A program made the translations under genes and the position numbers. Shown here one piece after another: positions 23,702-32,000 of a stretch of DNA of 32,000 nt. Origin of the DNA: Alkalilimnicola ehrlichii MLHE-1 (GTDB lineage: Bacteria > Pseudomonadota > Gammaproteobacteria > Nitrococcales > Halorhodospiraceae). Positions within the stretch are counted from its first letter, which is position 1. Every line of letters starts with the position of its first letter. The notes under the pieces are model-generated. The model saw nothing but the letters and a program-made list of their open reading frames with translations. It had not been told where the DNA came from and did not search any database. The stretch is taken from NCBI RefSeq assembly GCF_000014785.1, contig NC_008340.1, positions 2,760,001-2,792,000 on the forward strand, read 5' to 3'.

Positions 23702-26110
23702 ATGAAAGCCCTGCCGATCATCCTGAGCGCCCTGCTGACGCTGCCCGCCACCCTCGGCTGGGCCGCCCCCGCGGGGGCCGACGGCACGGAATACCGCCTG
23801 GGGGCGTTGGGCTTTCGTGCACCGGAACAGACGCTCGCCCGCTGGCAGGCCACCGCCGATTACCTCACCGAGACCATTCCCGACGCCCGCTTCCGCGTCG
23901 CGCCGATGAACTACCCCCAACTGGAGGCCGCCATCGCCGACGGGACGGTGGACTTCGTGCTCACCAACACCGGTCACTATGTGCGCATGGAGGCCGAGCA
24001 CGGACTGACCCGCCTGGTCACCATGATCGCCGAGGCAGAGCAGCAGCCGGTGCGCGTCTTCGGCGGGGTCATCCTGACCCGCGCCGACCGGCACGACATC
24101 CAGACCCTCTCCGACCTGGCCGGCCGGCACGTCTACGCCGTCGGCGAGGGGTCGCTGGGGGGCTGGCACGTGGGCCGGGAGGCCCTGCTGGACGTCGGGG
24201 TCGACCCGGCCCGGGATCTCGCCCGGGTGACCTTCACCGGCATGCCCCACGACCAGGTGGTGGAGGCGGTGCTGGCCGGTGAGGGCGATGCGGGAATGGT
24301 GCGCACGGGGATACTCGAGAGCATGGCCCGGGAGGGCCGCCTGGACCTGGACGCGGTGCGGGTGCTCGAGCCACGCCGGACGGCGGGTTTCCCCCTCCAA
24401 CACTCCACCCACCTTTACCCGGAATGGCCCTTCTCCCGGCTCCCGCACACCCCGGACGCGATCGCGCAGGCCGTGACCATCGCCCTGTTGGAGATGCCGT
24501 CCGGGCATCCGGCCGCCCGGGACGGTGGTTATGTCGGCTGGTCGGCCCCCCTCTCCTACGGGGGCGTCCACGAGCTCTTTCAACGCCTGGGTGAACCGCC
24601 CTACGAGCACTGGGGCGGCCTGGACCTGCGCGTGGTCTGGGAGCAGCACCCGGCCATCGTCCTGGCCCTGATGCTGATCGTCACCGGCGGCATGGCCGGT
24701 GCCGTCATCAAATACCGCCGACTCAACCGCAGCCTGGCGGTGGAGGTGGACCAGCGCCGGATGGTCGAACGGCAGCTGCGCCAGCACCAGGCGCGGCTCA
24801 CCCACTTGGCTAATCACGACCCGCTCACCGATCTGCCCAACCGGCTGTTGCTCACCACCCGACTGGAGCAGGCGGTTGCCCGCGCCACCGGTAGCGGACA
24901 ACGGGTGGCGGTGCTGTTCCTGGACCTGGACCGCTTCAAGAACATCAACGACAGTCTGGGCCACGCGGTGGGCGACGACCTGCTGCGGATCCTTGCCGAA
25001 CGCCTGCGCAGCCAGGTGGAGGCCAACACCGTGGCCCGGCTAGGCGGGGATGAGTTCATCGTGCTGCTGGACGGCATCAGCGATCTCGAACTGGTGGACC
25101 AGCAGGCGCGGGAGCTGCTTGAGCTGGTGGCCGAGTCCTTCTCCGTCGGGGGCTGGCGATCGCTGCAGGTGGGCGGCAGCATCGGCATCAGCCTCTTTCC
25201 GGACAACGCGCAGGATGCCTCCGAGCTCATCACCCAGGCCGACGCCGCCATGTACCTGGCCAAGGCCGAAGGTCGCAACACCTACCGCTACTACAACCAA
25301 TCGCTCACCGCCGCCGCCAGCGAACGGCTGGAGACCGAGACCCGCTTGCGCCGCGCCCTGGAACTGGACCACCTGGAGGTCTTCTATCAGCCCCAGCTGG
25401 ACATCACCACCGGGGCACTCACCGGCGTGGAGGCACTGGTGCGCTGGCGCGACCCCGAGCAGGGCCTGATACCGCCGGACCGCTTCATCCCGGTGGCAGA
25501 GGAGACCGGGTTGATTGACCGGCTCGGCCAGCAGGTGCTCGAGCGCGCTTGCCTTCAGGTGGCGGCCTGGGACCGGGACGGCCTCCCGGCCCTGGATGTT
25601 GCGGTCAATCTCTCGGCCCACCAGATCGGCGATCCGCGCCTGTGCGCCAAGATCCGCCATGCCCTGGAGCGCAGCGGACTCGCTCCCCGGCGGCTGGTGC
25701 TGGAGATCACCGAAAGCACACTGATGACCCAGGCGGAGGGTGCGCTCGGCACGTTGGCCGGGCTGAAGGGCCTGGGGGTGCAAGTGGCCATTGACGACTT
25801 CGGCACCGGTTACTCCTCCCTGGCCTATCTCAAGCGCTTTGCCATCGACTGGCTGAAGGTGGACCGCTGCTTCGTACAGGACCTGCCGGAAGACCGCAAC
25901 GACGCCGAGCTGACTCAGACCATCGTCTACATGGCCCACAACCTCGGCCTGCGGGTGCTGGCTGAGGGGGTGGAGACCCAGGCGCAACTGGATTTTCTCA
26001 CCCACCTCGGCTGCGATGGCTGGCAGGGCTTTCTCTGCAGCCCGCCCCTGCCCCCGCAAGAACTGGTGGCGCGCCTGGAAAGCAGAGAGGGGCTGCGCCG
26101 CCGCGCGTGA
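23702..26110 (+). CDS. Periplasmic PhnD-like substrate-binding domain, TM helix, GGDEF and EAL signalling protein
   Basis: Signal peptide MKALPIILSALLTLPATLGWA and an approximately 300-aa PBP-like domain. TM helix AIVLALMLIVTGGMAGAVI. GGDEF (RLGGDEFIVLL) and EAL (EVFYQPQ, EITES, DDFGTGYSSL). Confidence 0.88.
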   Translation: MKALPIILSALLTLPATLGWAAPAGADGTEYRLGALGFRAPEQTLARWQATADYLTETIPDARFRVAPMNYPQLEAAIADGTVDFVLTNTGHYVRMEAEHGLTRLVTMIAEAEQQPVRVFGGVILTRADRHDIQTLSDLAGRHVYAVGEGSLGGWHVGREALLDVGVDPARDLARVTFTGMPHDQVVEAVLAGEGDAGMVRTGILESMAREGRLDLDAVRVLEPRRTAGFPLQHSTHLYPEWPFSRLPHTPDAIAQAVTIALLEMPSGHPAARDGGYVGWSAPLSYGGVHELFQRLGEPPYEHWGGLDLRVVWEQHPAIVLALMLIVTGGMAGAVIKYRRLNRSLAVEVDQRRMVERQLRQHQARLTHLANHDPLTDLPNRLLLTTRLEQAVARATGSGQRVAVLFLDLDRFKNINDSLGHAVGDDLLRILAERLRSQVEANTVARLGGDEFIVLLDGISDLELVDQQARELLELVAESFSVGGWRSLQVGGSIGISLFPDNAQDASELITQADAAMYLAKAEGRNTYRYYNQSLTAAASERLETETRLRRALELDHLEVFYQPQLDITTGALTGVEALVRWRDPEQGLIPPDRFIPVAEETGLIDRLGQQVLERACLQVAAWDRDGLPALDVAVNLSAHQIGDPRLCAKIRHALERSGLAPRRLVLEITESTLMTQAEGALGTLAGLKGLGVQVAIDDFGTGYSSLAYLKRFAIDWLKVDRCFVQDLPEDRNDAELTQTIVYMAHNLGLRVLAEGVETQAQLDFLTHLGCDGWQGFLCSPPLPPQELVARLESREGLRRRA

Positions 26111-26174: not shown

Positions 26175-26210
26175 AATAAAAAACGCCGGCGCAGTGCGGC
26201 TGCGCCGGCG
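26175..26210 (-). terminator. Intrinsic terminator of the minus-strand M20-like/amidase/Rieske transcription unit
   Basis: 11-bp GC stem CGCCGGCGCAG (26184-26194) / CTGCGCCGGCG (26200-26210) with a 5-nt loop. On the minus strand it is followed by TTTTTTATT. Confidence 0.75.
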
Positions 26211-26272: not shown

Positions 26273-27586
26273 TTAGAGCTCCAGCGCCTCCCGCTCACGG
26301 GTAAGACTATCGATAATGCTGTAGATCAACGCCCGGCAGGGCTTGATCATGCCCTGGATGTTACACACCCCCATCCCGCCCAGCCCCTCGGCGAAGGCCT
26401 CCGGGACGGTCTCGTCACCGATCCAGGGATAGCCGATACGGACCAGCGGGATACCCAGGTTGTTGATGGCGGCCGCATCGGTCTGCCCGGCCAGCATCGG
26501 GGCACCGGGGTAGGGCCTGCCCTCCTGCGCCTCCCAGCCCCGGGTGGCCGAGCGCACCACCCAATGGTCCTCAGGGGTCCGCGAACCCGGCACCGAGGCG
26601 TACATCTCCCAATCGGCCTCGACCCCGGGGTTGCGGGCGAGGATATCGCGCATGGCGGCGTCGAACTCCGCCTGCACCTCGGCGGTGGTTTGGTGGGGGT
26701 TACAGCGCAGATCCAGGTAGATCTCCGTGGTGGCGCTGGGGAAGGCCGGCTTTTCCGGCCAACCGGAGCGGACCGCGGCGATCCACCCCTCAGGGGCAAT
26801 CTGACCGCGGGTATGGCGCTCGGTGTAACGGGGCAGCCAGTCCTCCAGGGCGAGGATCACCCGCGCCGCCGGCACGATGGAGCTGCGGAAACCGGGCGTG
26901 CCCCGCGGGATCCCGGAATACCCCAGCGTGCCCCGGACCGAGACCTTGAACCAGCACATGCCCGGATGGTCGTGGTAGATCTCCCACCAGGGCTTGAAGA
27001 TAATGCCGAAATCGGCGGTGACCCCACGCATCAGCATCTGGCTGACGCCGCTGCTCAGGCCAAAGTGGTTGCGTTCCGGCACGAGCTGAGGCATGCCACC
27101 GCCGGCGAAGGCGAGCACCGCCTCGCCCTTGAGAGGCACGCCGGCTTCGCGCACGGCATGCACCGCCTCCATGAGGGTGGTGACCATGCACTTGGGGTTG
27201 GAAGCCCCGAGGCCGATCACCAGATCGCCCTGGGTGTAGGCGTCGGTCTTCATGTCATCGCGCAGCTCCGGCCCCACCCAGGGCACGTCGCGCGACTCGT
27301 CCGCCTCCAGGTGGGTGTCCACCGGCGCGTAAAGCAGCATACGGGCACCCTCACCGGAGCCGGCCAACCGGCCGACGGCGTTGCCGCTCTGCTCACTGAT
27401 GGTCTGGTACTCGGCATCCAGTCCCATGGCCGACATCTGCTCCACCAGGTACCGGCTGGCCGCTGCCTCCGCCCCGGTGGGGCTGTGGATGCGGGTCAGT
27501 TCCAGGGTCCGCTGCTTCAGGCGTTCCTTGTCAATCCTGGCGCAGGCCGCCTCGTACCAGCGCTGTTGTTGCTCCGAGAATGCCAT
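26273..27586 (-). CDS. M20/ArgE/DapE-like peptidase-family protein, divergent (canonical metal-ligand motifs not evident)
   Basis: The domain order resembles M20 enzymes: N-terminal catalytic lobe, central lid region, and C-terminal ...GQTDAA...GIP...G. However APVDTHL, GLGASNPKC and AGGGM sit where GHxDVVP, GxGxxDxKG and DEEG are expected. Confidence 0.5.
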   Translation of the reverse strand: MAFSEQQQRWYEAACARIDKERLKQRTLELTRIHSPTGAEAAASRYLVEQMSAMGLDAEYQTISEQSGNAVGRLAGSGEGARMLLYAPVDTHLEADESRDVPWVGPELRDDMKTDAYTQGDLVIGLGASNPKCMVTTLMEAVHAVREAGVPLKGEAVLAFAGGGMPQLVPERNHFGLSSGVSQMLMRGVTADFGIIFKPWWEIYHDHPGMCWFKVSVRGTLGYSGIPRGTPGFRSSIVPAARVILALEDWLPRYTERHTRGQIAPEGWIAAVRSGWPEKPAFPSATTEIYLDLRCNPHQTTAEVQAEFDAAMRDILARNPGVEADWEMYASVPGSRTPEDHWVVRSATRGWEAQEGRPYPGAPMLAGQTDAAAINNLGIPLVRIGYPWIGDETVPEAFAEGLGGMGVCNIQGMIKPCRALIYSIIDSLTREREALEL

Positions 27587-27601
27587 CTTCCGCTCCTCTG
27601 C

Positions 27602-29005
27602 TTAGCGGTGCCCGGGCCGCAGGGCGGTCAAGCCCAGCGCCCGGAAGATCCAGGTGGTGCCGGCCAGCAGTGCGGCATCGCCGCCCTTGCGGCCGACCAG
27701 TTGCGCGGCCAGGGGCAAGTCACGCGCCCCCCGTCCGATGGGCAGAGCGACACACGGTGTGCCGAGCAGGGTCCAGGTGCGGTTGAAGAGCGGGTCGCCG
27801 GTGCTCTCCAGCCCTTCCGGTGCCTCGCCCGGCGTGGCCGGGGTGAGGATCAGGTCGTAGTCGGCGAACAGGCCATCGATCACCTGCCCCCAGTGCTCAC
27901 CCAGGGCACAGGCGCGGGCATAGTCGTCGTCGCTGACGGTCCGGCCGAAGGCAAGGAACTCGCTCAGCACCGAACTGAACCCGTCGGCGCAGCGGGCCCA
28001 ATCCTCGGCCAGCGCCTCGCTGCCCTCGCGGGCCATGATCATGCGCTGGGCCTCGACCAATGCCTCCATGCCGGTCGGGAGCTGCGGCTCCTCCACCGCG
28101 ACGCCCAGGCCGGCCAGGGCGTCGGCGAAGCCATCGAGCGCCCGGTGCATATCGGAATCACCCTGGCTCCACATTGGCGTGCGCAGGTAGGCGATCCGGC
28201 GGGGGCGCACCTGCGCCGACGCCTGCACTGCGGGCTCACTGCTCAACGCCTGGCGGGCCAGGCTCAAGTCCTCCGGCCCACGGGCAAAGACACCGACGGT
28301 GTCGAGGGAGCGGGCAAACTCATAGACGCCCGCCCGCGGGATCGCCCCGAACGTGGGCTTGTAGCCAAGCACGCCGTTGAACGCCGCCGGTCGTATCACC
28401 GAGCCGGCCGTCTGGGTGCCCAGGGCCAGGGTCACCTGACCGTCCGCAACGGCGGCCGCTGAGCCGCTGGACGAGCCGCCCGGGGTGTGCCCCGGGTGGT
28501 GCGGATTCCGGGTCGGTCCGGGGGCATAGAAGGCGAACTCGGTGGTCACCGTCTTGCCCAGGATCACGGCACCGGCCCGACGGAGCCGCCGGACGCATTC
28601 CGCCGCACGCAACGGCACGTAGGCCCGATAGAGCGGGCTGCCGTACTCCGTGGCCATATCAGCGGTATCGATGATGTCCTTGATGCCGACCGGCACCCCG
28701 CGCAGCGGCCCGGCCTCATCACCCACCTCGTCGGCCTGCCGCGCCGCCGCCAGGGCCTGGTCGGCCGCGACACAGCTCCAGGCCCGCACCGCGTCATCCC
28801 GGCGCTGGATTCGCTCCAGGCAGGCTTCGACCAGGCCTGCGGAGGTCAGCTCATGGCGGCGGAGACCGTCCACCGCAGCGGCGGCGGTCATCCAGTTGTA
28901 GAGGCCCACGCCACCGGCCCCCGCGCCCCGCCCGTCCGTCTGCCCCAGGGAGGGGCGCTGCAGCGGATGGGAGGCCATACAGGGTTGGAACAAAGACCAG
29001 GACAT
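27602..29005 (-). CDS. Amidase-signature (AS) family amidase
   Basis: GIKDIID lysine region and the signature GGSSSGSAAAVA. ATG at 29005 has GGAGGTG 9 nt upstream. Internal alternatives at 28978 and 28891 lack an SD. Confidence 0.88.
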   Translation of the reverse strand: MSWSLFQPCMASHPLQRPSLGQTDGRGAGAGGVGLYNWMTAAAAVDGLRRHELTSAGLVEACLERIQRRDDAVRAWSCVAADQALAAARQADEVGDEAGPLRGVPVGIKDIIDTADMATEYGSPLYRAYVPLRAAECVRRLRRAGAVILGKTVTTEFAFYAPGPTRNPHHPGHTPGGSSSGSAAAVADGQVTLALGTQTAGSVIRPAAFNGVLGYKPTFGAIPRAGVYEFARSLDTVGVFARGPEDLSLARQALSSEPAVQASAQVRPRRIAYLRTPMWSQGDSDMHRALDGFADALAGLGVAVEEPQLPTGMEALVEAQRMIMAREGSEALAEDWARCADGFSSVLSEFLAFGRTVSDDDYARACALGEHWGQVIDGLFADYDLILTPATPGEAPEGLESTGDPLFNRTWTLLGTPCVALPIGRGARDLPLAAQLVGRKGGDAALLAGTTWIFRALGLTALRPGHR

Positions 29006-29077
29006 TACGCGTCACCTCCGTCGCGTGGGCGGTCATTCGGGGCGGGCCGCCCACGCGGGGCGGCCCGCCGGCAGGGC

Positions 29078-30343
29078 TTACTCGAAGGCGCCTTCAGAGG
29101 CCTCGGCAAACCGGTAGCTCTGGTCCTTGAGCACGCCCGGCACGCCCTTGGGCTTGCGGGCCAGACCGCGGTTGTGACGGGAGGCGATCTTGCGCCAGGT
29201 CACCACCGAGGCGTCCATGTCGGCCAGCTGCTCCTCGTTCCAGCCGGTGCCATCGGCGTAGAAGTTTTGCATGGCGTCGCGGGCGAACAGGTCGCAGTCG
29301 TTGAAGCCGTGCAGGCACATGGGCTTGTAGAGGTTCTCAAAGCGGTACTCGAAGTCCTTGCGCTCCTGCTCGTCCTTGCAGTGCTTGACCAGCACCTCCC
29401 AGTACTCATAGGTGTCGTCGGTAATGGGCACGTACCACTCGTACTGCACCACATGGTCCTCCGGCCAGTTCTCCACCATGAGCACGCCGGGCAGGTACAT
29501 GGAGGTGCGGAAGTAGCGGGGCACGGTGCCCTGCGCCTTCACACCCAGCTTTTCGTTCTCCAGGATCGGTTCGTAGTGGTCCGTGTAGTACCGGTTCAGG
29601 AAGCCCTTGGGGCCGTTGTCGTCCTCGATCAGCGCGATGGCCTGGTCGGTGACCGGTTTCACCCCCAACGGCAGCGCCCAGTCACGGGCGTGCACGATGG
29701 CGTTGTCCTTGTGGATCAGCAGGTGGCCCGGATCAAAGCCGTTCTCGGCCGCCAGTCGCCAGTTGGCGTACCCCTTGCGGTGGATACCGAGGGCAACGGA
29801 GTGCTCGTCCAGCACGCTGGGGGTATCGGGCCAGTAGGGGTGCGGGAAACGCTCGTTGTTCTCCGGATAACGCAGCGGCAGGTCCGCGGCCAGCGGGGGC
29901 ACGTCCTCGTCCCAGTCCTCGTCGCAGACGAACACGAAGATCATGCCGCTGTGCTCCTCGACGGCAAACGTCTGAACGCCGGTGGTGCCGATGATCTCGT
30001 CATCGGGCGCGGCCACGATGGAGACCAGCTTGCCGGAGGCCAGGTCGAAGGTGAAGCCGTGGTACCAGCAGGTGATGGTGTCATCGGTAAGGCACATGGG
30101 TTTGGCCGAAAGCTTCACGCCACGGTGGATGCACTGGTCCTTCAGGGCGTAGACCTTGCCCTTGGAACGACGCAGAACGATGGGCACACCACAGATCTGG
30201 ATGCCCTTGGTATCACCCTCCTCCAGTTCGTGGGTGAACAGGGCCGGGTACCAGTGATTGATGAAACCCCACTCGGCTTCCAGGTAGGGCTGGTACATGC
30301 GCTTGGCCAGCTTGTCGTTGATGACCTTGGGATCGGCAGCCAT
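29078..30343 (-). CDS. Rieske [2Fe-2S] non-heme-iron oxygenase alpha subunit, CarAa/OxoO-like (beta-subunit-less class)
   Basis: Rieske motif CIHRG...CWYHG and iron-site region NWRLAAENGFDPGHLLIHKDN. From memory, GFINHWYP, LPGVLMV, YEWYVPI, DLFARDAM.NFYAD and VTWRKIASRHNRG are colinear with carbazole 1,9a-dioxygenase CarAa. Strong SD GAGGAGG. Confidence 0.8.
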   Translation of the reverse strand: MAADPKVINDKLAKRMYQPYLEAEWGFINHWYPALFTHELEEGDTKGIQICGVPIVLRRSKGKVYALKDQCIHRGVKLSAKPMCLTDDTITCWYHGFTFDLASGKLVSIVAAPDDEIIGTTGVQTFAVEEHSGMIFVFVCDEDWDEDVPPLAADLPLRYPENNERFPHPYWPDTPSVLDEHSVALGIHRKGYANWRLAAENGFDPGHLLIHKDNAIVHARDWALPLGVKPVTDQAIALIEDDNGPKGFLNRYYTDHYEPILENEKLGVKAQGTVPRYFRTSMYLPGVLMVENWPEDHVVQYEWYVPITDDTYEYWEVLVKHCKDEQERKDFEYRFENLYKPMCLHGFNDCDLFARDAMQNFYADGTGWNEEQLADMDASVVTWRKIASRHNRGLARKPKGVPGVLKDQSYRFAEASEGAFE

Positions 30344-30432
30344 TTTTCATCCTCCTCGGATAGTGCGGTGCCCTCTGGGGGGCGTCTCGTGTTAGCCAGC
30401 GGTCGCTTATCGCCGACCGTGCCTACTGTTTA

Positions 30433-30462
30433 GTACATGACAGGATCGTCTGTCAATTGATT
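30433..30462 (-). promoter_or_regulatory. Candidate promoter plus operator of the Rieske/amidase/M20-like unit
   Basis: The minus strand reads ATAAAAAATCAA-TTGACA-gacgatcctgtcaTGtACTAAA, with a perfect -35, an A-tract upstream and a TG-extended weak -10. The inverted repeat TGACAG-N6-CTGTCA (30438-30455) overlaps the -35 and spacer. Confidence 0.4.
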
Positions 30463-30464
30463 TT

Positions 30465-31061
30465 TTATCGATATTCGATGCATTTTGGTTGCAGCCACCC
30501 CGCAAAGGCCCGGGTCAGCAGGGGGAGCAACAGGTAGCTCATCACCGGCACCACCACCCCGGTCACCACCAGCAGGCGCACGGGCAGCGGCAGCGCCATC
30601 AACCAACCGCCGGCCAGGGAGAAGATCAGCCAGAGCAGTGGGAACAGGGCCAGCCATACCAACAGGGCCATCTTGTAACGCGGGGGCTCTGCTCTGGTCG
30701 CGGCCGCCGACGGCCTGCGGCCACAGGTGGACGCGGTGGTACTGACCTTGGTGGGCATGCCGTCGACCAACGACGGCGACCAGAGCTGCCAGCAGCCCCA
30801 GCGGATGGCCACCGCACCGGCCAGATCATCCCAGCGCTGAAACAGCGCTGAGCGGCGCAACCGCTCCAGGCTCTCCTCGCCTTTGAGCCGAAGGAGCAGC
30901 CGGTAGCGGCAGCGTTCCCGGACCAAGTCACAGACCTCCGCCTCGCCACTGCGCTCCACCGCCCGCCGCCATTCCTCGAAGGCCGACAGGAACGCCGGCT
31001 CCTCCCCGCAGCGCACATGCCACTCGCTGCTCAGCCAGATACCGTCTTTCGTGTTGTGCAT
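30465..31061 (-). CDS. ABM (antibiotic-biosynthesis-monooxygenase-like) domain protein with two C-terminal TM helices
   Basis: ATG at 31061 behind GGAGGAGAC. The N-terminal ~110 aa look like a soluble alpha+beta domain. The C-terminus PPRYKMALLVWLALFPLLWLIF...LLVVTGVVVPVMSYLLLPLLTRAFAGWL is typical of membrane-anchored ABM proteins. Confidence 0.6.
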   Translation of the reverse strand: MHNTKDGIWLSSEWHVRCGEEPAFLSAFEEWRRAVERSGEAEVCDLVRERCRYRLLLRLKGEESLERLRRSALFQRWDDLAGAVAIRWGCWQLWSPSLVDGMPTKVSTTASTCGRRPSAAATRAEPPRYKMALLVWLALFPLLWLIFSLAGGWLMALPLPVRLLVVTGVVVPVMSYLLLPLLTRAFAGWLQPKCIEYR

Positions 31062-31120
31062 GTCTCCTCCGGATGCCTCGCATCGATGTCGCCTGCCGGC
31101 CACCTTATCTTTGTTTTTGA

Positions 31121-31149
31121 TTGACGTTCAATAGACTGTCAAGTAATTT
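31121..31149 (+). promoter_or_regulatory. Candidate promoter plus operator of the hydrolase transcription unit
   Basis: TTGACG-N17-TAATTT preceded by a T-tract. The inverted repeat TTGAC-N12-GTCAA (31121-31142) shares TTGAC/CTGTCA half-sites with the Rieske promoter. Confidence 0.35.
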
Positions 31150-31223
31150 TATCTCAACCGCGAACGAAAACCACCCACGACGGTGGCGCGGTGACCCTTA
31201 AACAGGAGGAAGGAGAGCGCACG

Positions 31224-32000
31224 ATGACGCAGAACCCCGAAATCGGCCTGTTCCACGAGGCCGACGGCATCAAGACCAACTACCACGACGTGGGCGATGG
31301 CCACCCGGTCGTGCTCCTGCACGGCTCCGGGGCCGGCGTGACCGCCTGGGCCAACTGGATGGGACTGATCCCGGAGTTGTCCCAGGAACGCCGGGTGGTG
31401 GCACCGGATCTGGCCGGTTTCGGCTACACCGAGGTGCCCGACGATATCGAGTACCGCTTCATGGACACCTGGGTGGACCAGATGGTCCGACTGCTCGACG
31501 CCCTGGAGATCGAGCGCACCGACCTGGTGGGCAATTCCTTCGGCGGCACGCTGGCCATCGCCCTGGCAGTGCACCACCCGGAGCGGGTGCGGCGCATGGT
31601 CCTGATGGGCAGCGGCGGCCAGCCCTTCACCGTCAGCCCGGAGCTGGAGGCGCTGTGGGGCTATACCCCGTCGTTCGAGAACATGCGCCGCATTCTCGAC
31701 ATCATGGCCTTCGACCGCTCGCTGGTGACCGACGACATCGCCGATATCCGCTACCGGGCCACCATCCGTCCCGGGGTGCAGGAGCGGTTCGAGCGCATCT
31801 TCCCGCCACCCCGCCAGCGTTGGGCCGATGCCACCGTGTTCTCTGATGAGCAGCTCGCCGGCATCGACCACGAGACCCTGATCCTGCACGGCCGCGAGGA
31901 CCGGGTGGTGCCGGTCGCTGTCTCCGAGCAGCTGTTCCGAAAGATCGACCGGGCCCAACTGCACATCTTTGGCCGTTGCGGGCACTGGACCCAGATCGAG
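31224..32000 (+). CDS. Meta-cleavage-product (C-C bond) hydrolase, alpha/beta-hydrolase fold (BphD/CarC/TodF-like); C-terminus beyond the window; not in the supplied ORF track
   Basis: Hand translation from ATG 31224 (SD AGGAGGAAGGAG) gives 259 codons with no stop to position 32000: MTQNPEIGLFHEADGIKTNYHDVGDGHPVVLLHGSGAGVTAW...LVGNSFGG...LILHGREDRVVP...FGRCGHWTQIE. This supplies the Ser, Asp and His triad motifs. Confidence 0.88.
   Translation, partial: MTQNPEIGLFHEADGIKTNYHDVGDGHPVVLLHGSGAGVTAWANWMGLIPELSQERRVVAPDLAGFGYTEVPDDIEYRFMDTWVDQMVRLLDALEIERTDLVGNSFGGTLAIALAVHHPERVRRMVLMGSGGQPFTVSPELEALWGYTPSFENMRRILDIMAFDRSLVTDDIADIRYRATIRPGVQERFERIFPPPRQRWADATVFSDEQLAGIDHETLILHGREDRVVPVAVSEQLFRKIDRAQLHIFGRCGHWTQIE

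Follow-up and report, generated by a model that had tools for sequence, protein, structure and literature searches.

The window analysed here is a stretch of 32,000 nucleotides from Alkalilimnicola ehrlichii MLHE-1 (NC_008340.1, positions 2,760,001 to 2,792,000). Its right end carries a gene cluster with a predicted OxoO-type Rieske oxygenase, an amidase, an M20-fold protein related to the aryl-amine hydrolase NaaA and a hydrolase of the meta-cleavage product (MCP) type. This cluster probably encodes a catabolic arm for a benzo-fused lactam of the 2-oxo-1,2-dihydroquinoline (2-quinolinone) type, in which the M20-fold protein would break the aryl C-N bond and the amidase the acyl C-N bond. The initial annotation of this stretch had placed a CarAa/OxoO-family (PF11723) oxygenase at the core of a linked aromatic and amide catabolic cluster, which is confirmed. 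It had also proposed an N-acylated or amide-linked aromatic substrate. The amide linkage is right in general, and the best candidate is a cyclic amide, the benzo-fused lactam.

Four genes lie on the minus strand. They encode the M20-like protein (26273..27586, 437 amino acids), an amidase-signature amidase (27602..29005, 467 amino acids), the oxygenase component of the predicted Rieske monooxygenase (29078..30343, 421 amino acids) and an ABM-like membrane protein (30465..31061). The stop codon of the amidase is separated from the start of the M20-like gene by 15 nt. On the plus strand, the gene for the alpha/beta hydrolase begins at 31224 and is cut off by the window end at 32000; the protein has 278 amino acids in relatives. 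All five genes have strong homologues, with near-identical gene calls in one Alkalispirillum genome and three metagenome contigs, and therefore they are not chance open reading frames (ORFs). The ORFs, the Pfam matches and a hairpin place the five genes and a strong terminator exactly where they had been annotated.

The Rieske protein matches PF00355 and the homotrimeric ring hydroxylase family PF11723 in Pfam (260.5 bits versus a cutoff of 24.4). Its best match among solved structures is OxoO (PDB 1Z01), the oxygenase of the 2-oxo-1,2-dihydroquinoline 8-monooxygenase from Pseudomonas putida 86, with 665 bits and 64% identity over residues 9–418, whereas CarAa gives about 309 bits and about 40% identity. 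The Rieske [2Fe-2S] ligands Cys71, His73, Cys92 and His95 are present in the CIHRG and CWYHG motifs and align with those of OxoO. For the mononuclear iron site, His207, His211 and Asp351 align with H183, H187 and D333 of CarAa, the iron ligands named in PMC3423008, and the bridging Asp204 aligns with Asp218 of OxoO. The CarAa specificity positions 262/275/282/329 are T/W/Q/F in the window oxygenase, the same as in OxoO. Every sequence-level feature of the OxoO family was thus found in this PF11723-family protein. A GbcA-type model scored 32 bits against its cutoff of 670, and grouping with betaine or carnitine oxygenases, which would have spoken against an aromatic substrate, was not seen. These comparisons identify the protein, at the level of sequence, as an OxoO-type Rieske oxygenase rather than the CarAa type proposed before, and the 64% identity together with the pocket positions would fit 8-hydroxylation of 2-oxo-1,2-dihydroquinoline.

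Relatives of the oxygenase were collected by a scan with one genome per species, which gave 80 loci. They split into two clades by oxygenase sequence. The OxoO clade (73–91% identical to OxoO) includes Pseudomonas, Massilia, Cupriavidus, Paraburkholderia, Sphingosinicella and others. The second clade (62–64% identical to OxoO and 72–75% to the window oxygenase) includes Neptuniibacter, Marinobacterium, Pontibacterium, Aromatoleum, Zoogloea and Actimicrobium, and the window oxygenase belongs to it. Of the aligned positions, 190 are identical throughout both clades and 21 are clade-specific, so the pocket of the window oxygenase is predicted to be OxoO-like, not identical. A close homologue is also found on plasmid p1 of Cupriavidus necator, in an unannotated record.

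The M20-like protein scores 16.5 bits against Pfam M20, below the cutoff of 24.6, and its NCBIfam match to ArgE/DapE is weak (TIGR01910, 45 bits versus a cutoff of 218). In a single-sequence search of the PDB, the best match was NaaA, the 5-nitroanthranilate aminohydrolase (97 bits). The family-profile search gave 138 bits for NaaA (E 3e-39) and no more than 40 bits for other M20 structures. When the AF2 model (pLDDT 93) was searched with Foldseek, the top 12 matches were all NaaA with TM 0.78–0.86, and the next match had a TM of about 0.75. In the 26–50 family members examined, the canonical HxD His is replaced by Pro88 and the canonical bridging Asp by Asn130. The EE-motif region reads GGGM, with Gly163-164 where NaaA has Gly-Glu, although the alignment is ambiguous there. 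The family reads RIGYPW where the C-terminal metal His of the DapE motif would be expected, a placement made by motif and not by alignment. By score and by metal ligands, the protein does not belong to the canonical M20 metallopeptidases and deacylases such as ArgE and DapE. The cluster had been credited with two amide-bond hydrolases, which does not hold for this protein: it lacks the canonical metal ligands, and its nearest solved relative is an aryl-amine hydrolase.

NaaA swaps an aromatic amino group for a hydroxyl in a hydrolytic reaction thought to be of the nucleophilic aromatic substitution (SNAr) type (PMC10306065, PMC11903332). Among solved structures, the enzyme from Bradyrhizobium sp. 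JS329 (PDB 5K8M–5K8P) is nearest to the M20-like protein in both profile and fold. Where M20 enzymes carry the bridging Asp, the two proteins carry Asn. Both would also act at a point in a pathway at which an aromatic carbon has to lose its amino nitrogen before the ring is cleaved. In contrast, their identity is only about 25%, and 5-nitroanthranilate is excluded as the substrate of the M20-like protein because its genomic partner is a Rieske oxygenase, not a nitrosalicylate dioxygenase. The M20-like family is small (211 clusters at 50% identity with E ≤1e-30 among 1.84 billion representatives). Fifteen polar residues are invariant in it, even in members only 37–41% identical: S35, N69, D90, D111, N130, K132, D192, K198, Y223, D292, R294, D370, R383, D426 and R430. 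The analogy with NaaA makes the M20-fold protein a candidate for hydrolysis of the C-N bond in the removal of nitrogen.

The 467-residue amidase matches Pfam PF01425 with 268 bits. Its motifs are intact and align with those of malonamidase E2: Lys109 in GIKDII, GGSSSGS at 176–182 and Ser202 in GSVIRPA. Malonamidase E2 (PDB 1OCK and others), a hydrolase of a small primary amide, is also the best PDB match, with 245 bits over 360 residues and about 50% identity. The two enzymes have the Ser-cisSer-Lys motifs in common; the window amidase differs by its aromatic-catabolism context and by an N-terminal extension of about 50 residues.

The MCP hydrolase gave 182 bits with the HsaD model and 137 bits with the BphD model of NCBIfam, both below the cutoffs. 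For its full-length orthologue from a metagenome contig (L083), CumD scored 358 bits, well above BphD (about 140), CarC (134), HsaD (about 131) and MhpC (119). The alpha/beta fold, a candidate catalytic triad (Ser105 in GNSFGG, Asp226 and His254) and the close CumD match place it among the MCP hydrolases. It is not of the CarC type that had been assumed. CumD is the 2-hydroxy-6-oxo-7-methylocta-2,4-dienoate hydrolase (PDB 1IUN), and shares the fold and the triad with the window protein. Unlike the setting of CumD, the window cluster has no cumene or alkylbenzene dioxygenase genes, and the acyl side chain of its ring-fission product would be expected to carry a carboxylate or an amide.

The gene content past base 32000 was taken from four relatives, not from the same genome. 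Three are metagenome contigs with a 99%-identical oxygenase (L082–L084), and the fourth is an Alkalispirillum genome contig with the cluster at the same chromosomal position (L085). After the hydrolase gene, they have a NifU/NfuA-like gene, a type I, BphC-like extradiol dioxygenase gene, an OxoR-type reductase gene (352 amino acids, Fer2/FAD_binding_6/NAD_binding_1), and then MhpD/F/E-type genes for a 2-keto-4-pentenoate hydratase-type protein of the FAA_hydrolase family, an acetaldehyde dehydrogenase and a DmpG-type aldolase. The last gene is FMN reductase-like. Projected onto the window coordinates, the cluster extends from about 26.2 to 38.5 kb, roughly 12 kb. No ferredoxin gene and no small-subunit (beta) gene were found in these four relatives, and the single Fer2-FAD-NAD reductase is the electron-transfer partner encoded there. 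We take OxoOR to have the same two-component layout and OxoR the same Fer2-FAD-NAD architecture. The earlier statement that no ferredoxin, reductase or regulator is visible is correct for the window itself; the reductase, like the extradiol dioxygenase, is missing because the window edge falls before it.

The NifU/NfuA-like gene (L083:5921-6556, L085:4867-5499, L121:1-359) adjoins the hydrolase or the Rieske gene throughout the oxygenase clade of the window (11 loci). Its product may serve the Rieske protein as a dedicated factor for Fe-S maturation.

For the neighbourhood analysis, all ORFs were clustered from 81 loci, the 80 genome loci and the window. A reductase was found near OxoO-like genes in 68 of the 81 loci, an amidase-signature amidase in 60 and the M20-like protein in 50. 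They were followed by a Zn-dependent alcohol dehydrogenase (40/81), an AraC/XylS regulator (39/81), the MCP hydrolase (38/81), an SDR (32/81), a cupin (29/81), an extradiol dioxygenase (27/81), an Asp/Glu-racemase-like protein (23/81) and a hemerythrin-like protein (21/81). Pfam checks also identified the MhpD/F/E genes and a DUF1302/DUF1329/BNR/RND uptake set as recurring neighbours. The pairing with an amidase and an M20-like protein, which had been regarded as non-canonical, is therefore common around OxoO-like genes. The Rieske, amidase and M20-like genes remain linked in relatives, and the unlinking that would have spoken against a common pathway was not seen.

The Pseudomonas loci whose oxygenase is 86–91% identical to OxoO, used here as a stand-in for the published P. 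putida 86 cluster, have the same amidase and M20-like genes alongside. The amidase–M20 tandem was found again in Marinobacterium and Sphingosinicella-type loci at 43–50% identity. In the oxygenase clade of the window, the M20-like gene at first seemed to be missing within 10 kb of the oxygenase gene, but in Marinobacterium the tandem pair lies just past the uptake genes, beside two hydrolases and a NifU-like gene. In the reverse test, metagenome loci were found from the M20-like protein. A Rieske gene stands directly beside the M20-like gene in about 12 of the 15 loci with enough flank, and this adjacency holds at Rieske identity of only 27–30% and M20-like identity of 37–41%. The M20-like gene is the tightest genomic partner of the OxoO/CarAa-family oxygenase, and the amidase is a looser one. 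By sequence, the amidase appears to be drawn from at least two subfamilies (43–50% versus 30–35% identity to the window amidase).

Several of the distant Rieske–M20 clusters also contain genes for a molybdenum hydroxylase large subunit, a LigB-type dioxygenase, an alpha/beta hydrolase and an amidase. Molybdenum hydroxylases are the enzyme class that makes lactams from N-heteroaromatics, and the combination of molybdenum hydroxylase, dioxygenase, hydrolase and amidase is a signature of N-heteroaromatic catabolism via a lactam. Near the close OxoO-like loci, no molybdenum hydroxylase was found except in L075; otherwise it occurs in the distant clusters only. The organisms with close OxoO-like loci probably enter the pathway at the lactam and not at quinoline. 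In consortia that degrade quinoline, 2-hydroxyquinoline is known to be cross-fed between members (PMC7193041).

Some loci in this survey deserve separate mention. The deeply divergent Rieske–M20 clusters of the L111 type (L111:6474-13982, also L108, L112 and L114) have the gene order molybdenum hydroxylase large subunit, short PF11723 Rieske protein (355 amino acids), M20-like protein, alpha/beta hydrolase, LigB-type dioxygenase and NMT1-like binding protein, and resemble another, so far uncharacterised N-heterocycle pathway built around the same Rieske–M20 pair. In one soil metagenome locus (L096:6303-11308), the M20-like gene follows genes for an Amidohydro_3 protein and a 348-residue protein without Pfam match, and no Rieske gene was detected; in another (L089:5280-11308), a thiamine pyrophosphate (TPP) enzyme gene and a Rieske gene lie between the Amidohydro_3 and M20-like genes. 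The M20-like family is therefore not exclusively tied to Rieske oxygenases. A 735-residue protein from the European Nucleotide Archive (ENA; P0191) was considered as a Rieske–M20 fusion and rejected. It consists of the C-terminal half of a PF11723 oxygenase reading through into an M20-like protein, has no Rieske domain and probably reflects a frameshift or an artefact of assembly. The OxoO-clade loci (L019, L025, L029, L064 and others) have conserved extras that are not in the window cluster, namely a Zn-dependent alcohol dehydrogenase, a cupin, a hemerythrin-like protein, an SDR, an Asp/Glu/hydantoin racemase-like protein, a second amidase and a lipocalin-like protein. The Zn-dependent alcohol dehydrogenase could be an HcdE-like coumarin double-bond reductase.

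A pathway can be proposed from these genes, in which the kinds of step are supported by homology and the substrate class and the site of hydroxylation are our inference. The two-component Rieske monooxygenase would hydroxylate the carbocyclic ring at the carbon next to the nitrogen-bearing carbon. The nitrogen would then be removed by the two hydrolases encoded directly downstream, the amidase and the NaaA-like M20-fold protein. The resulting 3-substituted catechol would be opened by the BphC-type extradiol dioxygenase, the ring-fission product would be cut by the CumD-like hydrolase, and 2-hydroxypentadienoate would be processed by the hydratase, the aldolase and the acetaldehyde dehydrogenase. 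By homology and gene context, this meta-cleavage route for a 3-substituted catechol is complete. According to established meta-cleavage chemistry, an MCP hydrolase and a 2-hydroxypentadienoate pathway need a true catechol, and therefore the nitrogen has to come off the ring carbon before the ring is cleaved. Within the cluster, only the NaaA-like protein is a candidate for this aryl C-N cleavage, and by analogy the acyl C-N cleavage would fall to the amidase. The likely substrates are 2-quinolinone, its 3,4-dihydro form or a substituted relative.

The two hydrolases could act in either order. The amidase may open the lactam first, and the M20-like protein would then deaminate the resulting o-aminophenol. 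Alternatively, the M20-like protein may displace the amide nitrogen from the ring, so that the catechol formed bears a primary amide on its side chain. This amide would be hydrolysed by the amidase at once, or after ring fission in the form of succinamate or maleamate, the small dicarboxylic monoamide released by the C-C hydrolase. Speculatively, the latter order fits the malonamidase-like amidase, a hydrolase that is CumD-like and not MhpC-like, and the tighter linkage of the M20-like gene with the oxygenase gene. From general chemistry, the cis-2,3-dihydroxycinnamate or its amide formed by either order should lactonise to 8-hydroxycoumarin, the classical intermediate. The known coumarin reductases are XenA in P. 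putida 86 and the alcohol-dehydrogenase-type HcdE (PMC5519977, PMC7913881). No coumarin or cinnamate double-bond reductase is encoded in the window cluster, and therefore the clade of the window may cleave the unsaturated catechol directly or start from 3,4-dihydro-2-quinolinone.

Going further, we tentatively consider it a real possibility that the M20-fold proteins form an uncharacterised sister family of NaaA, a dedicated partner of OxoO/CarAa-family oxygenases, which would cleave the aryl C-N bond of a hydroxylated benzo-lactam or of the ring-opened amine without the M20 metal ligands or Arg289. Together with the amidase, it would then be the missing pair that turns 8-hydroxy-2-quinolinone into a catechol-level product, 8-hydroxycoumarin or 2,3-dihydroxycinnamate.

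Several observations weigh against the lactam pathway or parts of it. For the M20-like protein, Arg289 of NaaA aligns with Ala281, the His of the NaaA HLD motif is Pro88 and the Glu of the NaaA "CGE" is Gly. In this comparison, which was based on PDB entry titles and alignments and in which Arg289 is the residue mutated in PDB 5K8P, only Asp90 and Asn130 of the active-site set are common to both proteins. Because these likely key residues differ, NaaA-like chemistry is not assured and may not be simply transferable. For the oxygenase, specificity is not fixed by 64% identity to OxoO, and several of the 21 clade-separating positions lie beside the iron ligands (N219 to A/P, A220G, I222L, V224I, Y292F and V296M). 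Of the genes in the cluster, that of the amidase shows the weakest conservation (75% protein identity to Alkalispirillum), and the Cupriavidus and Pseudomonas loci use another amidase subfamily, only 30–35% identical to it. The hydrolase is CumD-like, not MhpC-like, and the classical 2,3-dihydroxyphenylpropionate would predict otherwise. Neither in the window nor in L082–L085 does the cluster encode a molybdenum quinoline oxidoreductase, a double-bond reductase of the XenA or HcdE type, a regulator or a transporter. N-heteroaromatics are not known to be growth substrates of A. ehrlichii.

The system that the cluster resembles most is OxoO/OxoR of P. putida 86 (PDB 1Z01–1Z03) with its 8-hydroxycoumarin pathway. 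They share 64% oxygenase identity, the same ligands, the same four pocket residues, a single Fer2-FAD-NAD reductase without ferredoxin, and downstream meta-cleavage of a 3-substituted catechol. Unlike OxoO, the window oxygenase falls in a separate clade (Neptuniibacter, Marinobacterium, Aromatoleum, Zoogloea) with 21 clade-specific substitutions. The window cluster also has no quinoline 2-oxidoreductase nearby, no XenA- or alcohol-dehydrogenase-type coumarin reductase and no AraC/XylS regulator, and has the NifU-like gene and the ABM-like membrane protein as extras. The carbazole system CarAa/CarBaBb/CarC has the same Pfam oxygenase family, the alpha3-type architecture without a small subunit, and the same sequence of attack next to the ring nitrogen, meta-cleavage and C-C hydrolysis. 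In contrast, oxygenase identity is about 40%, electron transfer in the window cluster is two-component instead of three-component, the dioxygenase is type I and BphC-like, not the LigB-type CarBaBb, and the hydrolase is CumD-like. Identity as a car cluster was rejected on the missing ferredoxin, the missing LigB-type CarB and the oxygenase scores (309 bits for CarAa versus 665 for OxoO).

The same comparison bears on the substrate model of the initial annotation, an open-chain N-acylated aromatic such as an N-acyl aniline or N-acyl anthranilate, which would be attacked by a CarAa-like angular or lateral dioxygenase, deacylated by the two hydrolases and processed by a CarC-type hydrolase. The oxygenase does belong to the Pfam family of CarAa, two hydrolases of amide-cleaving superfamilies are encoded downstream of it, a meta-cleavage hydrolase adjoins, and judging from CarAa chemistry an angular attack at the nitrogen-bearing carbon would release the nitrogen without any aryl C-N hydrolase. 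However, the overall identity and the pocket positions of the oxygenase match OxoO and not CarAa, neither a ferredoxin gene nor a CarBaBb-type dioxygenase is present but a single Fer2-FAD-NAD reductase, the hydrolase scores 358 bits with CumD versus 134 with CarC, and the distant Rieske–M20 clusters carry a molybdenum hydroxylase, which points to ring lactams. We therefore regard an open-chain substrate as improbable.

Two other explanations keep the lactam as substrate and assign another role to the M20-fold protein. It might be an ordinary amidohydrolase that opens the lactam at the acyl C-N bond, leaving a small amide such as succinamate or maleamate, or a primary amide, to the amidase, with the ring nitrogen lost in some other way. 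M20 enzymes are mostly deacylases and amidohydrolases, and the weak ArgE/DapE matches in NCBIfam agree with this; so do the closeness of the amidase to malonamidase E2, which acts on small primary amides, and its looser linkage to the oxygenase. A CumD-like hydrolase favouring uncharged side chains would presumably fit an amide-bearing ring-fission product as well. But the canonical metal and catalytic residues are replaced in all of the 26 to 50 members (Pro88, Asn130, Gly163-164), which makes standard dinuclear-metal amide hydrolysis unlikely, and the cluster encodes no other candidate for aryl C-N cleavage. We consider this assignment unlikely, though less so than the open-chain substrate. 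The loss of the canonical ligands and of the NaaA Arg289, together with the very tight placement of the M20-like gene beside Rieske genes across deep divergence, could also suggest a non-catalytic pseudo-enzyme that stabilises, assembles or regulates the oxygenase or the amidase, with the amidase alone doing the nitrogen chemistry. This is very improbable: fifteen polar residues are invariant among members only 37–41% identical, the strong purifying selection on the protein (92% protein versus 83% DNA identity) does not favour it, and many loci have the M20-like gene without any amidase. Aryl C-N cleavage by the M20-fold protein and acyl C-N cleavage by the amidase thus remains the assignment that we prefer.

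That quinoline and 2-quinolinone can be degraded via 8-hydroxycoumarin has been known for decades. Literature assigns genes to the steps before nitrogen removal (the molybdenum hydroxylase Qor and OxoOR) and after it (XenA, the 8-hydroxycoumarin reductase; PMC5519977, PMC7913881). In the searchable literature, no gene was found to be assigned to the removal of nitrogen from 8-hydroxy-2-quinolinone.

The age and constraint of the cluster were assessed by comparing window genes with their Alkalispirillum orthologues (L085), given as protein/DNA identity. The values are 99%/90% for the oxygenase (window 29078-30343 versus L085:7244-8509), 95%/88% for the C-C hydrolase, 92%/83% for the M20-like protein, 80%/79% for the ABM-like protein and 75%/72% for the amidase, compared with 77%/78% for HemN and 90%/86.5% for RNase PH in the flank. 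By these values, purifying selection is stronger on the oxygenase, the M20-like protein and the hydrolase than on the housekeeping genes beside them, and the cluster is in use. The constraint is very uneven inside one operon, with the oxygenase at 99/90% next to the amidase at 75/72%.

The GC content of the Rieske gene is 0.63 versus 0.69, and it is 0.63–0.65 over the Rieske, ABM and hydrolase genes (29000-32000) versus 0.69–0.72 for most of the window. No tRNA gene that could serve as an integration site was found in the window. A recent island was rejected despite the lower GC of the oxygenase gene, since the cluster is syntenic in Alkalispirillum and related metagenome contigs and its DNA has diverged there to the same degree as the flanks. 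Therefore, the cluster is a long-standing, maintained resident of the lineage. The region before it is indeed housekeeping, with a two-component system, biotin genes, SpoT, RNase PH, HemN and a GGDEF-EAL protein, so the description as an accessory cluster in a housekeeping region stands for the flanks; in the sense of a recent acquisition it does not.

The Rieske–amidase–M20-like operon ends in an intrinsic terminator on the minus strand (26210..26184), about 60 nt past the stop codon of the M20-like gene. In its hairpin, 10 of the 11 stem pairs are GC and the loop has 5 nt; the T-run TTTTTTATT comes directly after. The plus-strand neighbour at 23702-26110, which encodes a periplasmic Phosphonate-bd-type binding domain fused to GGDEF and EAL, converges with the M20-like gene on the same terminator region, and no evidence was seen that this GGDEF-EAL gene regulates the cluster.

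Alignment of the window with L083 and L085 revealed two conserved promoter-like blocks, both on the minus strand. One (30405..30472) lies upstream of the Rieske gene and is nearly invariant in the three sequences, with an A-tract followed by TTGACA at about 30456-30451. The other (31102..31162) lies in the divergent intergenic region, is directed towards the ABM/TM gene and has the sequence GGTTGAGATAAAATTACTTGACAGTCTATTGAACGTCAATCAAAAACAAAGATAAGGT, nearly invariant across the three lineages. The motif GATAAAA..TT...TTGACAG, in which a perfect -35 hexamer comes after an A-tract, is common to both. A consensus sigma-70 scan of the window called no promoter, and the blocks emerged from the alignment only. 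They are nearly invariant though the neighbouring genes are about 72–90% identical in DNA. Their similarity suggests two similarly built promoters or a shared regulator site, the latter despite the lack of a regulator gene in the cluster.

The ABM-like protein has 198 amino acids from ATG, and a GTG start at 31103 would give 212. The Pfam scan found no match for the 198-residue protein, the ABM family included, and its precomputed Pfam assignment is PF27539 Y2318_C. Among 5.8 billion proteins it has only 4 homologues, one of which is 100% identical and comes from A. ehrlichii MLHE-1. The AF2 model, built on this shallow 4-sequence alignment, has an N-terminal ferredoxin-like domain (pLDDT 80–90 for residues 8–100) and two C-terminal helices (128–154 and 159–185). 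With the N-terminal domain of that model, the best Foldseek matches were ABM proteins (E about 4e-4, TM 0.66–0.75 relative to the target). Its earlier naming as a membrane ABM protein is therefore tentatively supported at the fold level and not as a Pfam family. The gene is not in any of the 80 other OxoO-like loci. This protein is restricted to the Alkalilimnicola/Alkalispirillum lineage and is a lineage-specific extra of the cluster.

The pathway type proposed here, OxoOR with 8-hydroxycoumarin, is a known one. The newer element is the NaaA-related partner family, which possibly supplies the nitrogen-removal step. The amidase and the M20-like protein are concrete candidates for this step and travel with the oxygenase in Gamma-, Beta- and Alphaproteobacteria, and the M20-like candidate is related to the only structurally characterised hydrolytic enzyme that removes an aryl amine. 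For the organism, these results would mean that a soda-lake chemolithoautotroph lineage keeps a strongly constrained, predicted functional pathway for an N-heteroaromatic lactam.

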